Shown: one piece after another, positions 8,977 through 56,298 of the stretch
Numbering within the stretch: the stretch's first letter is position 1
Layout of the letters: every line of letters starts with the position of its first letter
From: Coraliomargaritaceae bacterium
GTDB lineage: Bacteria > Verrucomicrobiota > Verrucomicrobiia > Opitutales > Coraliomargaritaceae
DNA: 64,000 nucleotides
Direction: 5' to 3'
Assembly (NCBI GenBank): GCA_965656495.1
Contig: CBFHKU010000003.1
Location: 96,001-160,000 of the forward strand
Translations under genes and position numbers: made by a program
The notes under the pieces: generated by a model
Told to the model about the DNA's origin: nothing
Database searches by the model: none
What the model saw: only the letters and a program-made list of their open reading frames with translations

Positions 8977-9034
8977 CCCCTCAGTCTTACTCATACTCTA
9001 AATCCTAATCTTAATCCTACTCTTAATCTTAATC
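8977..9034. repeat. Left arm: CCCC followed by nine tandem hexamers (consensus YTAMTC)
   Basis: cccc tcagtc ttactc atactc taaatc ctaatc ttaatc ctactc ttaatc ttaatc, read directly. Confidence 0.9.
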
Positions 9035-9064
9035 CTCCCCCCCCCATCTAAAACAACAGTCCAC

Positions 9065-9463
9065 ATGGCTTCCGCCCTCGATCACGAAAAATTAAAGGTG
9101 TATCAAAAAACCCTTCAATTTATCAGTGAGGTGGAAACGCTGCGAAGCGAAATCCCCAAAGGACACACCGCCGCAATCCATCTCGAACGAGCCGCGACCT
9201 CCATCGCACTCAACATTGCAGAAGGAAATGGTAAATATACCGCCGCAGACCGTTGCCGATTTTTTGATATTGCCCGAGGCTCTGCCACTGAATGTGCCGC
9301 AGCTCTGGACATCCTTAATGCAAAAGCAGTCCTCAGTAATGAGACTACAATTCCCGCCAAGGCCCTGCTTTCTGAAATTGTTGCGATGTTGGTCGGATTA
9401 ATTCGCAGTCAAAATTCTGGACGAACGCACGAACCTCCTCAGCCTTACAATGCAAAGGATTAG
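9065..9463 (+). CDS. Four helix bundle protein (23S rRNA intervening-sequence protein / TIGR02436-like)
   Basis: HEKLKVYQ...LERAATSIALNIAEG..K....RCRFFDIARGSATEC signature; AT-richer than flanking genes. Confidence 0.9.
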   Translation: MASALDHEKLKVYQKTLQFISEVETLRSEIPKGHTAAIHLERAATSIALNIAEGNGKYTAADRCRFFDIARGSATECAAALDILNAKAVLSNETTIPAKALLSEIVAMLVGLIRSQNSGRTHEPPQPYNAKD

Positions 9464-9493
9464 CTTGTGCTTTCTGAATTGTTGGAAAGGTTA

Positions 9494-9551
9494 GAGTGAG
9501 ATTAAGATTAGGATTAAGATTAGGATTAAGATTAAGAGTAAGAATAAGGGG
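9494..9551. repeat. Right arm: nine tandem hexamers (consensus GAKTAR) followed by GGGG, inverted relative to 8977-9034
   Basis: gagtga gattaa gattag gattaa gattag gattaa gattaa gagtaa gaataa gggg; 50/58 positions match the reverse complement of the left arm (hand alignment). Confidence 0.9.
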
Positions 9552-12004: not shown

Positions 12005-12036
12005 GTGGGAAAGTGCAAAGGTGTGAAAGTGGGAAG
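12005..12036. repeat. Tandem octamer array (GTGKGAAR family) after the carA stop
   Basis: gtgggaaa gtgcaaag gtgtgaaa gtgggaag; same family as 54186-54225. Confidence 0.75.
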
Positions 12037-12521: not shown

Positions 12522-12663
12522 CTCTGCGTTTTATATTCTAACGCGGAGGAGCTCTCAAACTCTGCGTTTATGATTTAACGCGGAGGAGCGGAGGATCAGA
12601 GGCTCTGCGTTTATGATTTAACGCGGAGGAGCGGAGGAGCGAAGGGCTCTCAAACTCTGCGTT
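12522..12663. repeat. REP-like hairpin array, three full units and one half unit (CTCTGCGTT-loop-AACGCGGAG)
   Basis: Units at 12522-12548, 12560-12585 and 12603-12628, half unit at 12655-12663; linkers made of GAG/CGGAG/CAGAG subrepeats. Confidence 0.9.
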
Positions 12664-12709: not shown

Positions 12710-12895
12710 ATGGATGCAATGGAAGTCATCGACCACTTCAAGCGCTTACCTGAAGAAGAACAAGGTAAGGTCGTTGAGTTCATCCGTAAGGATAGCTCTG
12801 CGAAAGTGCGCTATGCCGACGATGAGGCTGCCAAAGCTGCGGGCGAGGCTGTCTTTAATGAACACCCCGAAGTGTTCCGCAAGTTGGCACAATGA
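12710..12895 (+). CDS. Putative antitoxin
   Basis: 61-aa ORF overlapping the toxin gene by ATGA; C-terminal ...EHPEVFRKLAQ resembles Doc-associated antitoxin tails. Confidence 0.7.
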   Translation: MDAMEVIDHFKRLPEEEQGKVVEFIRKDSSAKVRYADDEAAKAAGEAVFNEHPEVFRKLAQ

Positions 12896-13275
12896 GCGAT
12901 CCGGTCTTTTTGACGACCGCTCAGGTAGAAGCTTATCACAGACGAGGCTTGGAGCTTTATGGCGGTTCCGAAGGTCTCCGGAACCGTTCTCTTTTTGAAA
13001 GTGCGGTAGCTCAGGCTCAGAACGTATACTGGTATGGAAATGGCGACCTGTATGACATTGCGGCGGCTTACTGCTACTATATCGCACAAGTCCAAGTGTT
13101 CCTTGATGGGAATAAAAGGGCTGCAACTGCTGCATGCTTGGCCTTCCTGAAGTTGAACGGTGTCAGAACTGATATTGAACTGACGATGCCTCTCTATAAT
13201 GCCTTGATTGATATTGCAGAACATCGCATGGACCGTGACGGTCTGGCGGGCATGCTTCGCGAGTTGCTCACATAG
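12892..13275 (+). CDS. Death-on-curing (Doc/Fic family) toxin-like protein
   Basis: YGGSEGLRN..LFESAV, DL..IAAAY and QVFLDGNKRAA..ACLAFLKLNG motifs; Gln at the His position. Confidence 0.88.
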   Translation: MSDPVFLTTAQVEAYHRRGLELYGGSEGLRNRSLFESAVAQAQNVYWYGNGDLYDIAAAYCYYIAQVQVFLDGNKRAATAACLAFLKLNGVRTDIELTMPLYNALIDIAEHRMDRDGLAGMLRELLT

Positions 13276-13341
13276 CCGCAAAAGGGGGTTAAAGGTGGGA
13301 ACGTTGAACGACGGGCGTTGTTGAGTTGTGACCCTTTGCTG

Positions 13342-13465
13342 CTCTGCGTTTATGATTTAACGCGGAGGAGCAGAGGAGCAGAGGCTCTGCGTTTTATATT
13401 TTAACGCGGAGGAGCGGAGGAGCAGAGGGGCTCTGGAACTCTGCGTTTTATATTTTAACGCGGAG
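13342..13465. repeat. REP-like hairpin array, three units, same orientation as 12522-12663
   Basis: Units at 13342-13367, 13385-13411 and 13439-13465. Confidence 0.9.
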
Positions 13466-13474
13466 GGGCGCGGC

Positions 13475-53713: not shown

Positions 53714-53742
53714 AAAGGCCCGCCATCCGGCGGGCCTTTTTT
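53714..53742 (+). terminator. Intrinsic terminator
   Basis: Perfect stem AAAGGCCCGCC-atcc-GGCGGGCCTTT plus a T-run, just after the S8 stop. Confidence 0.9.
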
Positions 53743-53774
53743 ATGTCTGTCAAAAATAGACCTTCGCCCGCGAC

Positions 53775-53798
53775 CTTCCCACTTTCGTACTTTCCTAC
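53775..53798. repeat. Octamer array, reverse orientation of the GTGKGAAR family
   Basis: cttcccac tttcgtac tttcctac. Confidence 0.6.
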
Positions 53799-53858
53799 CT
53801 ACAACCCTCATCTCCGTTCTTGTTTTTGAGCTCCGGCGGCTTTATGCTGGTCGACATC

Positions 53859-54173
53859 ATGATCGAACTGGTTAAAAAATCAATGTTGGCGGGCTTGGGA
53901 CTCGCCGTCGTGACGAAAGACAAAGTGCTGGAGTCATTGCATGAATTAGTGGAGAAGGGGAACCTCTCCAAAGAGGAAGCCGCCGCGATGTCGGAAAAGA
54001 TCGTGGCAGCGGGCGAGGCCGAAACCGAGAAGGCGAAGGTCGAGGCGAGTCAGCTCTTCAATCAGCTCCTACAGCGCGCCAATGTCGTGACCAAGGATCA
54101 ATACGACGCCCTCGCGGCGCGGGTCACGGAACTGGAGGGGCGCCTGCATAAGGAGTTTCCAAACGCTGATTGA
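53859..54173 (+). CDS. Phasin-like / PHA-granule-associated family small protein
   Basis: KK.MLAGLGLA..TKDK....L.ELVEKG.LS.EEA and VT.....L..RV..LE pattern. Confidence 0.75.
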   Translation: MIELVKKSMLAGLGLAVVTKDKVLESLHELVEKGNLSKEEAAAMSEKIVAAGEAETEKAKVEASQLFNQLLQRANVVTKDQYDALAARVTELEGRLHKEFPNAD

Positions 54174-54185
54174 GCGGCGTTTGGA

Positions 54186-54225
54186 GTGGGAAGGTGTGAA
54201 AGTATAAAAGTGGGAAGGTGTGAAA
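54186..54225. repeat. Left arm: five tandem octamers (GTGKGAAR)
   Basis: gtgggaag gtgtgaaa gtataaaa gtgggaag gtgtgaaa. Confidence 0.88.
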
Positions 54226-54244
54226 GCTATGAGGGTAAAATATC

Positions 54245-54595
54245 ATGAGTGATTTTGCAGAGCGGTTTGAGGATCTGCGCATTTGGCAGGAGGCGCGTGG
54301 TTTGGTGAATGCGATTTATGAGGCGATGGGCGAGTGTCGGGACTATGCCTTTAAGGATCAAATTACACGGGCGACAGTCTCAACAATGAATAATATTGCT
54401 GAAGGTTTTGAGCGCCGCTCTTCGAGGGACTTTGGTCATTTTTTGGACATTGCGAAAGGTTCTGCCGGTGAAGTTCGAAGTATGCTTTATCTCGCGGAAG
54501 ACCTGAAGCTAATCGGTTCAGCCCTTTCCAAGAATTTAAGAGAAAAAGCACGCGTACTTTCTGCGGGGATTGCTGCCTTTCGCCGCAAATTATAA
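54245..54595 (+). CDS. Four helix bundle protein (23S rRNA intervening-sequence protein / TIGR02436-like)
   Basis: RFEDLRIWQEA...DYAFKDQITRATVSTMNNIAEGFER....F..FLDIAKGSAGEVRSMLY signature. Confidence 0.92.
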   Translation: MSDFAERFEDLRIWQEARGLVNAIYEAMGECRDYAFKDQITRATVSTMNNIAEGFERRSSRDFGHFLDIAKGSAGEVRSMLYLAEDLKLIGSALSKNLREKARVLSAGIAAFRRKL

Positions 54596-54598
54596 AAC

Positions 54599-54630
54599 CT
54601 TCACACTTTCAAACCTTTCCACCTTCCCAC
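54599..54630. repeat. Right arm: four tandem octamers, inverted relative to 54186-54225
   Basis: cttcacac tttcaaac ctttccac cttcccac. Confidence 0.85.
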
Positions 54631-54648
54631 CTCAGCTCAGCTGAAACA

Positions 54649-56298
54649 ATGAAACCCTTCAACTACCTCGCCAATGCGGTGCGTGCTCCGGAAATTGTCG
54701 CGATTCTGGTGCGCTGGGGGTTTGAGGACCTGCTCCTGCAACTGGAAACGCCGCCGCTTTTGTTGCGCAATCTCGTCCGTTCAAAAGTGGCGCATTTGAC
54801 GCCCTACGAGCGCCTGCGCAATGCCCTCGAGGAATTGGGTCCGATCTTTGTGAAGTTTGGTCAGGTGCTCTGCACGCGCCCGGACCGTCTGCCGGAACCG
54901 CTGGTGCGGGAATTGAAACGGCTGCGTGATCAGGTGGAGCCGCAGGCCTTTGAAAAGATCGAGCCGGTATTGTTGCGGGAATTAACGGGGGAACTGGATG
55001 CGGTCTTTACCGAATTCGACCCGGTGCCGGTGGCGGCGGGTTCGCTGGGGCAGGTTTACAAGGCGCGGCGCCGCACGGATGGCGCATGGGTTGCAGTGAA
55101 GGTTCAGCGGGCGGAAATCCAGAGTAATATTCGCGCGGATATGGACATCATTGCTTGGTTTGCGCGGCAGTTGCACGCGCGGGTCACGGATTTGCAGCCC
55201 TACAATCTGCCTGCCTTGGTCGCCGATGCGGAGCGCCGCATTCAGGCGGAATTGGATTACCGGAATGAAGCGGACAATGCCGAAGTGTTCCGCGCCTTGA
55301 ATGCCGGGGAGGCGGGGGTCTTTGCTCCGGCGGTGGATCGTGCCTTGAGTACGCGCCGCCTCTTGGTGACGGAATGGGTGGAGGGCAGTGCTCCGCATTC
55401 GGCGGATCTGGACGCGGCGGCGGCGCGTGAGGTCGCGCTCCTCGGCGGGCGCAGTATGTTTCGTCAAATTGTGGCAACCGGATTTTTCCACGCCGATCCG
55501 CATGCCGGGAATCTTTTGATCACGCCCGAGGGGCGCGTTTGTTTCTTGGACTGGGGACAGGCGGGTCAAATTACGGTTGAGATGCGCTATGTATTGGCGG
55601 ATTTATTTGCTGCGATTGCGGCGGGGGATGCTTGGGCGGTCACGCAGGTGGCGGAGCGGATGTCGGAGGGACGCCGGCCCATTGAGCAAGGGCGTCTGGA
55701 AGCGGAGGTGACTTATTTGCTGAATCGGCAGGGCAATGCGGGCGCTTTGAAAGCGGAGATCGGGGCTTTGGCGCTCAAGCTCTTGTATATTTTTGGGCGC
55801 AATGGGGTGGTGGTGCCACCGGATTACGCCTTGCTGGCGAAGGCGATACTTTGCGTGGAGGAAACCGCACGCAGTCTCGATCCGGATTTTGAGATCGAAC
55901 CGGTGGCGCGACCCTTCCTTGAGGAATTGGCGCAATCGCGCTGGAGTATTGACGGTTTAAAGCGTCAGGCGCTCTATCCGGCGCTCTCGGCAATGCGTCA
56001 TTTGCGGCAGGTCCCCGAGCAGTTGCAGCGTATTCTGCAGCGCGTGGAGGCGGAGGATATTCAGATAAACATGCACCACGCCGGGACCGAAAACCTGGAG
56101 GAGACTTTTAACGCCTCAATGAATCGCCTGACGGCGGGTATTATTGTCGGATCGCTGGTGATTGGTTCCTCGCTTGTGATTACGACTGGAGTTAAGCCCC
56201 TATTGATGGGCTATCCCGTTCTAGGCTTGCTTGGTTTTCTTGCTTCATTCTTACTGGGGTTATACATCCTTATATCAACGTTTAAGAATCACCGCTGA
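54649..56298 (+). CDS. ABC1/AarF/UbiB family atypical kinase
   Basis: LEELGPIFVKFGQ, AAGSLGQVY, VAVKVQR, ELDY..EA, FFHADPHAGN and LDWG motifs. Confidence 0.93.
   Translation: MKPFNYLANAVRAPEIVAILVRWGFEDLLLQLETPPLLLRNLVRSKVAHLTPYERLRNALEELGPIFVKFGQVLCTRPDRLPEPLVRELKRLRDQVEPQAFEKIEPVLLRELTGELDAVFTEFDPVPVAAGSLGQVYKARRRTDGAWVAVKVQRAEIQSNIRADMDIIAWFARQLHARVTDLQPYNLPALVADAERRIQAELDYRNEADNAEVFRALNAGEAGVFAPAVDRALSTRRLLVTEWVEGSAPHSADLDAAAAREVALLGGRSMFRQIVATGFFHADPHAGNLLITPEGRVCFLDWGQAGQITVEMRYVLADLFAAIAAGDAWAVTQVAERMSEGRRPIEQGRLEAEVTYLLNRQGNAGALKAEIGALALKLLYIFGRNGVVVPPDYALLAKAILCVEETARSLDPDFEIEPVARPFLEELAQSRWSIDGLKRQALYPALSAMRHLRQVPEQLQRILQRVEAEDIQINMHHAGTENLEETFNASMNRLTAGIIVGSLVIGSSLVITTGVKPLLMGYPVLGLLGFLASFLLGLYILISTFKNHR

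Follow-up and report, generated by a model that had tools for sequence, protein, structure and literature searches.

A Four-Helix-Bundle Gene with Inverted Octamer Arms Is One of Several Alternative Alleles at a Phasin-Like/ABC1 Gene Junction in Coraliomargaritaceae

Introduction

Two groups of described systems are close to the locus reported here: gene-bearing elements such as the open reading frame (ORF)-bearing intervening sequences (IVSs) of 23S rRNA, and dispersed intergenic repeat arrays, among which BIME/REP mosaics are a comparable class. In the 23S IVS of Coxiella burnetii, RNase III cuts a terminal stem of 28 bp, tandem heptamers precede the ORF, and the structure 2GSC is described in the same report as a toroidal pentamer (PMC4990558). 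For Avd of the diversity-generating retroelements, all five protomers are reported to contact an RNA stem-loop (10.1101/2023.10.23.563531). The minimal mobile element (Saunders and Snyder 2002), as defined in PMC3787668, is a third system of relevance. The intergenic heptamer families include GGGAATC of Xanthomonas and GGGGAYT of Nostoc (PMC4692102) and TAACTGA of Beggiatoaceae (PMC4679880); the terms “four helix” and “S23” are absent from the main texts of these two reports. A full-text literature search, in which most subscription journals were beyond reach, returned no description of repeat-armed four-helix-bundle cassettes outside rRNA.

Here, we describe such a cassette in a 64,000-nt window (the whole stretch of DNA that was analyzed; contig CBFHKU010000003.1, positions 96,001 to 160,000, of assembly GCA_965656495.1) from a Coraliomargaritaceae bacterium that was detected in marine sequencing runs. 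The study genome is designated G000 and its contigs C1, C2, etc.; loci, including those from the genomes of relatives, are labeled L followed by three digits.

Results and Discussion

Layout of the Cassette and Its Flanking Genes

The cassette spans positions 54174–54648 (475 nt) and consists of one gene with inverted octamer arms, located between two host genes encoded, as it is, on the plus strand. The upstream host gene (53859–54173; 104 aa from a conserved ATG) is phasin-like, with weak family matches that both fall below the cut-off (NF047773, 27.8 bits versus 35; TIGR01837, 23.2 versus 94.7). The downstream host gene (54649–56298; 549 aa) encodes an ABC1/UbiB-like atypical kinase (PF03109, 204.9 bits; TIGR01982, 305.8 bits, under the 487.6 cut-off). 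Between them, the cassette gene (54245–54595; 116 aa) was identified by profile match as a four-helix-bundle gene of the TIGR02436/PF05635 (23S_rRNA_IVP) family and has a G+C content of 47.6%, compared with 54.1% for the genome.

Inspection of the repeats showed the 5' purine arm (54186–54226, plus strand) to have five degenerate octamers (54186–54225) of the form GT[G/A][G/T][G/A]AA[G/A]. It starts 12 nt past the phasin-like stop and reads GTGGGAAG GTGTGAAA GTATAAAA GTGGGAAG GTGTGAAA. The 3' pyrimidine arm (54597–54632, plus strand), delimited by repeat and fold inspection, has four degenerate octamers (54599–54630) complementary to the 5' arm, which begin 3 nt after the ORF stop and end 18 nt before the ABC1 ATG at 54649. 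Re-reading the sequence confirmed the coordinates of both arms and the 12-, 3- and 18-nt gaps in the original prediction. Its GTGKGAAR unit described the arrays correctly, but only four of the five and two of the four octamers fit it exactly, as the units are degenerate. The proposed likeness to the layout at 8977–9551 was also confirmed, in that the gene at 9065–9463 belongs to the same family and has hexamer arms, there with the pyrimidine arm first. The hexamer of that cassette is TAATCY, its neighbors are coaBC-like and histidine kinase genes, and its clade is found at the same site in approximately 11 family loci.

Two features had been missed: a hairpin that spans the stop codon of the phasin-like gene (54157–54186), discussed below, and a third octamer array (53773–53800, minus strand; pyrimidine form on the plus strand). 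This array lies between the terminator-like hairpin of an upstream S8-peptidase-like gene (53714–53739, plus strand; outside the cassette) and the phasin promoter-like site. It is present in the study genome and in L006, where it is two units longer, and is absent from the 140 nt upstream in the other family loci inspected. We considered this array as part of the cassette or its transcript and rejected the assignment because it is upstream of the promoter-like site and absent from other relatives; it was therefore treated as one of 57 dispersed arrays. The promoter-like site itself (TTGTTT, 17 nt, TATGCT; 53820–53848, plus strand) is approximately 10 nt before the phasin ATG and was recognized by eye and by its conservation in relatives; it was missing from the output of a consensus promoter scan. 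By eye, a TTGTnT-17-TAnnnT arrangement at 53820–53861, 6–10 nt before the phasin ATG, is conserved in most family loci, and its position suggests that the phasin transcript is leaderless or near-leaderless.

Insertion and Alternative Alleles at the Phasin-ABC1 Junction

An ABC1 orthologue was found in 66 of 101 family genomes. Sixty-seven junction loci were retrieved, two of which (L066 and L071) were dropped as contig ends cut them, and the other 65 were classed by tblastn and by eye. Twenty were empty, 11 held a type-A cassette (the octamer-armed type), 12 held a type-B cassette, and two and five, respectively, held relics of these types; the remainder comprised three loci in which a 9-mer hairpin was present, 11 that had other spacers and one that lacked the phasin-like gene. 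The type-B protein is 33–38% identical to type A and its arms are heptamers (GTTG[T/C]TN) at the same junction. Types A and B are mixed within genera.

In the empty family loci the gap between the two host genes ranges from −4 to 56 nt. Outside the family, 16 of 282 sampled genomes of the order matched the phasin query, and no cassette was present in the 15 loci from other families of the order in which both genes were found. The gaps in 12 of these loci were −4 (four times) to 38 nt and in three were 71–146 nt. An ATGA overlap of the phasin-like and ABC1 genes occurs in nine empty alleles, five in the family and four in the outgroup. The cassette is, as originally predicted, an insertion between originally adjacent phasin-like and ABC1 genes. 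The adjacency of this gene pair stated in the original prediction was likewise correct (within 60 nt in 20 of 65 family and 12 of 15 outgroup loci). The original prediction had named a lack of empty alleles in relatives and arms that do not pair as the outcomes that would count against it; the synteny check it proposed found empty alleles, and the arms are predicted to pair.

Several mutually exclusive alternative alleles occupy this junction, and they decay. Seven of the type-A loci are intact and four are broken or strongly diverged, and gene-less octamer and heptamer hairpins are found at the site (L029, L045). On an ABC1 tree (FastTree, with no shuffled-label null, and on which gain and loss are not separable), the labels of 17 genera require only the minimum of 16 changes. 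The states A, B, 9-mer and empty require 22 over 53 tips, and the distinction between A and B requires 12 over 30 tips. The phasin genes of the type-A locus L042 and the type-B locus L051 agree at 311 of 315 nt, which fits exchange by recombination in the flanking genes. In L018 and L030, type-B loci of two genera, the cassette dS is 0.38 compared with saturation for the phasin gene and 1.45 for the start of ABC1; this low value against diverged flanks points to transfer, in this case without co-transfer of the flanks. Between genera, the identity of the type-A four-helix-bundle protein (71–78%) mostly tracks that of ABC1 (66–79%), so vertical inheritance and recurrent loss account for much of the pattern, and much of the type-A history may have been of this kind. 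The pair L026/L036, with 90% protein identity across genera, was considered as a case of transfer, which was unsupported as its dS is 1.64 compared with 1.42 for phasin. Types A and B also occurred in one genome (L050/L051; bin contamination 4%), which may represent a strain mixture in the bin.

Comparison of filled and empty alleles by eye revealed no direct duplication beyond the stop/start trinucleotides, and no recombinase, nuclease or reverse-transcriptase domain was found within the cassette. Target choice via likeness of the arm repeat to the upstream gene end was also considered (longest match, mean 5.71 versus 5.42; 4 of 300 permutations) and rejected, as the signal was driven by two loci whose frame enters the arm (14 and 15 nt).

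The Four-Helix-Bundle Protein

The 116-aa product scored 94.5 bits against TIGR02436 (cut-off 24) and 101.3 bits against PF05635 (cut-off 33.8). Its predicted model has four helices (pLDDT 96) and TM-scores of 0.89 to 2GSC, 0.81 to 2RLD and 0.67 to Avd (4DWL); the 2GSC and 2RLD entries have five chains each. The protein is slightly basic (pI 8.8; K+R 19 versus D+E 17). It is under purifying selection: there were nine synonymous and no non-synonymous changes relative to the sister genome, and dN/dS was at most 0.04 for type A (0.04 for L026/L036) and 0–0.08 in six type-B pairs. In two very close pairs the counts of synonymous/non-synonymous changes were 0/2 and 1/4, and there are many broken alleles. 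By analogy to the structural matches, we infer that the protein would form an S23p/Avd-type pentameric ring, and it likely binds its own arm repeat.

Match of the Repeat Unit to the Protein Subfamily

Genes of the TIGR02436/PF05635 (S23p/IVP) family were found in 36 of 50 family genomes, with up to nine copies each and at least 150 matches. The study genome has four such four-helix-bundle genes, with four different arm units. We assembled 127 usable genes from the supplied loci, 80 more among the matches listed, and the phasin-site loci. On a tree of the protein family built by a quick method, the repeat unit (6, 7 or 8 nt) and its polarity were specific to each well-supported clade. Within the bacterial family, clade and site are largely confounded. 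This confounding is broken because one site can hold different clades with different units, as do the phasin-ABC1 junction and a second site, and because relatives from several phyla that were found by protein alone carry the core of the type-A arms.

These cross-phylum relatives, the best 80 of 528 by protein patterns alone (76 after removal of four duplicates), came from Verrucomicrobiota, Bacteroidota, Marinimicrobia, Patescibacteria and other phyla. The core AARGT/ACYTT, which was picked after looking at the relatives' arms, was present at least twice in both arms in 9 of 11 type-A loci, 41 of the 76 closest relatives and 3 of 116 other family genes, the loci not being independent. The positives represent 31 downstream-gene clusters, or approximately 25 sites when merged by eye, with at least 12 loci at cysD-cysN. 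Regardless of the unit, inverted arms were found at 138 of 202 loci compared with 2 of 1010 shuffles, and arms in direct orientation at 20 of 202. Together, these data indicated that the repeat unit co-varies with the protein subfamily across phyla. At this position other relatives have a different gene of the kind, whose repeat is 7 bases long, so a gene and its repeat probably move together as a matched unit that can be exchanged. Plain linkage, with inheritance as a block, could also produce this co-variation.

Type A is found at other sites as well. It is located after argG, facing a convergent gene (L124/L185), in a host whose phasin site has a gene-less octamer hairpin (L029), and before trpA in L184. 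The cassettes of two relatives (L213, L223) adjoin apparent tRNA genes, as judged by eye.

Predicted Folds and RNA-Level Explanations

The arms at 54186–54219 and 54597–54630 are complementary at 28 of 34 positions (82%). RNA folds that included the arm stem had z-scores of −2.09 and −2.50 (3 of 100 shuffles were as good), and arm-to-arm pairing had a predicted probability of 0.89–1.0 at 24 of 41 purine-arm positions. Pairing of the arms, as originally predicted, was thus borne out in the predicted fold. The minus strand folded as DNA gave an identical stem (z −2.09), so the folds do not discriminate between RNA and DNA.

Three helices meet at a junction in the predicted structure: the stop hairpin, the arm stem, which stacks on this hairpin, and a mini-hairpin of 5 bp with a GC-NNN-GC triloop (54632–54644, plus strand), 4 nt before the ABC1 start. 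The hairpin at 54157–54186 (plus strand; z −3.4, 1 of 200 shuffles as good) has the stop codon in its loop, and its 12 bp are formed by the last 12 coding nt of the phasin-like gene and an inverted copy at 54175–54186, just past the stop. Inverted copies of the last 11–17 nt of the host gene across the stop codon were found in 7 of 11 type-A alleles and in none of the 20 empty alleles. Stop-spanning hairpins scoring at least 20 were present in 7 of 11 type-A, 1 of 12 type-B, 0 of 20 empty and 0 of 11 other alleles, and in 3 of 1079 control genes. The phasin end occurs in five sequence versions that all keep the pairing, which was perfect over 11–17 bp in five loci. Such hairpins also occur elsewhere (20 bp at cysD in L203, 12 bp in L135 and 18 bp in L136); the low frequency of those scoring at least 20 at other loci (6 of 98 in the family and 3 of 70 cross-phylum) indicates that this feature is not universal. 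Mini-hairpins of the GC-NNN-GC type are enriched next to these cassettes, occurring at 20 of the 127 family loci and in 7 of the 76 relatives (from the best 80 of 528), compared with 26 of 1079 control genes. At L322, a decayed type-A left end has a degenerate stop-spanning hairpin and no ABC1 start after it.

A possible but rather unlikely explanation for this anatomy is an IVS at the mRNA level, in which the arms would pair, RNase III would cut the stem, the gene loop would be removed and the stop hairpin would protect the upstream 3' end. The conserved pairing of the hairpin in five sequence versions, the predicted 28-pair stem on which it stacks, the presence of RNase III (rnc) in the genome (210 bits), and the protein family and anatomy shared with the Coxiella 23S IVS (PMC4990558) all favor this explanation. 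An excess of G-U pairs among the arm mismatches on the sense strand, which would speak for it, was not found (204 G-U versus 253 A-C), and a register-free wobble test showed no bias (22 versus 20 loci). The terminator control for the wobble test was underpowered (6 versus 4), so this null result lowers the probability of an RNA-level function and does not exclude it. In addition, one RNA-library contig spans 54358–54666, from the ORF interior across the 3' arm to the start of ABC1; it may derive from DNA and cannot show cleavage. Its six substitutions in the ORF were read as synonymous from the codon positions.

In the contigs of two RNA and two DNA runs, weak evidence in that only contigs were available, no joints skipping the cassette were found. 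There were also no indels or end pile-ups at the cassette in the contigs of these four runs, taken from a total of 24, in which strand, ends and cleavage are not visible. The RNA contigs break near the arms, but so do those of DNA run X11, and we therefore drew no inference from these breaks.

Short unpaired gaps at both ends of the stem give a geometry that fits rejoining of the flanking genes. The original proposal that the arms exist to join the flanking genes in the mRNA was not supported, because there was no G-U excess and no skipping joint, and the argG copy faces a convergent gene. Rejoining of the flanks is a possible side effect that makes the insertion tolerable. A related, very improbable explanation is translational coupling, in which the stem would loop the gene out and the ribosome would reinitiate at ABC1, the arms having been selected because they preserve an ancestral overlap coupling. 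The ATGA overlaps of nine empty alleles suggest such an ancestral state, and in 19 filled alleles the outermost pairs are 0–9 nt from the stop and mostly at most 16 nt from the start (by duplexfold, which over-extends). However, the neighbor that the type-A cassette after argG faces is convergent, 11 “other” alleles tolerate spacers of 92–253 nt without such arms, and wobble bias is absent. The missing Shine-Dalgarno motif before ABC1 was dropped as evidence of coupling; such motifs precede only 59 of 632 long ORFs tested in the study genome and, with the motif so rare in this organism, its absence is uninformative.

Dispersed Arrays and Other Armed Genes

Only two of the 57 octamer arrays genome-wide flank a four-helix-bundle gene and 55 do not; on contigs C1–C3 there were 34 arrays compared with 0, 0 and 0 in three shuffles. 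Many arrays belong to mosaics that also contain REP-like hairpins and arms of heptamers, hexamers and 9-mers, stacked in intergenic islands at C1:74470-75700, C1:271030-272000, C4:138700-139650, C5:640-1440 and C6:148850-149380. A Y1 transposase-like gene (L296, C9:69024-69299) is followed by a cluster of mosaic-type REP-like hairpins and is flanked by REPs like those in the mosaics. We take this gene to be a candidate RAYT and use the labels RAYT, REP and BIME for the gene, hairpins and mosaics.

Arms can thus spread without the gene, which keeps alive the explanation that the octamer arrays were dispersed together with REP/RAYT mosaics and only by chance lie on both sides of an ordinary gene that is useful to the host, with no functional link between the two. 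The mixed arrays, the REP-flanked Y1 gene and the REP-like inserts seen by eye at the phasin-ABC1 junction itself (L053, L059, L060, L062) are consistent with such passive assembly. We consider it distinctly unlikely given the enrichment of inverted arms over shuffled and direct arrangements, the unit and polarity fixed per protein clade across phyla, and the four different units of the four genes in the study genome.

Other repeat-associated genes were observed. In the window, an octamer array and GCGGAGGA-type arrays form repeat-rich intergenic segments (12020–12035, 12580–12645 and 13341–13470) flanking a small ORF (12892–13275) that is presumably Fic/Doc-like. The GxxExxY genes at L299, L301 and L302 also have inverted repeat arms; L302 is in tandem copies with a 5' fragment that resembles the beginning of alaS, which suggests that a flank was captured from another site. 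At L002 (C3:59917-60228), a four-helix-bundle cassette has apparent gene fragments on both sides, which we take to be from an rfbA-like gene, as if it had moved with pieces of its former site. A 480-aa reverse-transcriptase-like ORF with a YADD motif (L303, C13:33267-33737) is located away from the four-helix-bundle genes.

A Model for the Armed Cassette

We favor, at roughly even confidence, the explanation that this locus is a single-gene cassette with mutually exclusive alleles that are exchanged between relatives by recombination and a protein that binds its own arm repeat. Exchange of alleles by recombination is likely. The pentameric ring would recognize the degenerate repeat when the nucleic acid is single-stranded or folded back, and such recognition could keep gene and arms matched. 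It may also help the unit to enter new junctions on rare occasions (argG, trpA, cysD-cysN and approximately 20 others), after which the unit would spread at its fixed site like a minimal mobile element. Folding back would allow the operon to tolerate the insertion, and would not be the selected function.

If taken further, these observations could define mobile elements of a class of their own, whose Avd-like ring recognizes its own repeat and drives insertion at stop/start sites without a conventional transposase, with the inverted copy of the target end as a scar and with rRNA IVSs and 6–9 nt arrays as special cases or relics. We regard this proposal as tentative and, on balance, unlikely.

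Three features are new at this locus: competition between two protein/repeat pairs for a single site, an inverted copy that spans the stop codon, and a wobble test with a negative outcome. The phasin-ABC1 junction, where two protein/repeat pairs compete for one site, represents a natural specificity swap. With empty alleles and gene-less relics alongside these two natural pairs, binding, RNA processing and mobility are addressable at a single site. The match of protein subfamily to repeat offers a specific candidate ligand for the widespread S23p/IVP family, which has no known function, just as short intergenic repeat arrays lack an explanation.

Comparison with Known Systems

The cassette resembles the ORF-bearing 23S rRNA IVSs (helix 45 of Coxiella burnetii with S23p; Leptospira, Brucella), as they are described in PMC4990558, in its PF05635 gene, size (approximately 450 nt), terminal inverted repeats, stem of approximately 28 bp, tandem repeats in the 5' arm and patchy spread. 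Membership of this class was rejected based on location: the terminal inverted-repeat stem is predicted, but the cassette lies between two protein-coding genes. It also differs in that both arms are repeat arrays, rival cassettes occupy one site and the protein here is under purifying selection.

The fold of the protein (TM 0.67 to 4DWL) and the pentameric ring inferred from the chains of 2GSC and 2RLD are similar to Avd. Identity to Avd is only 10%, however, and no reverse transcriptase or template/variable repeat adjoins the gene. Assignment as a diversity-generating retroelement was rejected, as the neighbors are the phasin-like and ABC1 genes and the only RVT_1 match of the genome is on another contig. 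An origin as a MITE or IS-derived element was rejected because of the lack of a target-site duplication (by eye) and of a transposase in the cassette. A REPIN or BIME was rejected as the cassette ends lack the GTAG/GTGG-tagged REP seen by the Y1 gene; other octamer arrays are found among such REPs.

The arrays are like the heptamer families (PMC4692102, PMC4679880) in being dispersed, degenerate, intergenic arrays of 6–9 nt units with some convergent inverted pairs, and unlike them in that the unit studied here is an octamer and is linked to a protein subfamily. Based on the account in PMC3787668, the cassette is similar to a minimal mobile element in having variable gene content between conserved flanks among close relatives, with alleles common to distant genomes and differing in close ones. 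It is different in that one architecture serves all alleles, copies reach new sites and the flanks of L018/L030 were not co-transferred. By analogy, then, the cassette is one that appears to work like an ORF-bearing rRNA IVS placed in a coding operon and to be distributed like a minimal mobile element.
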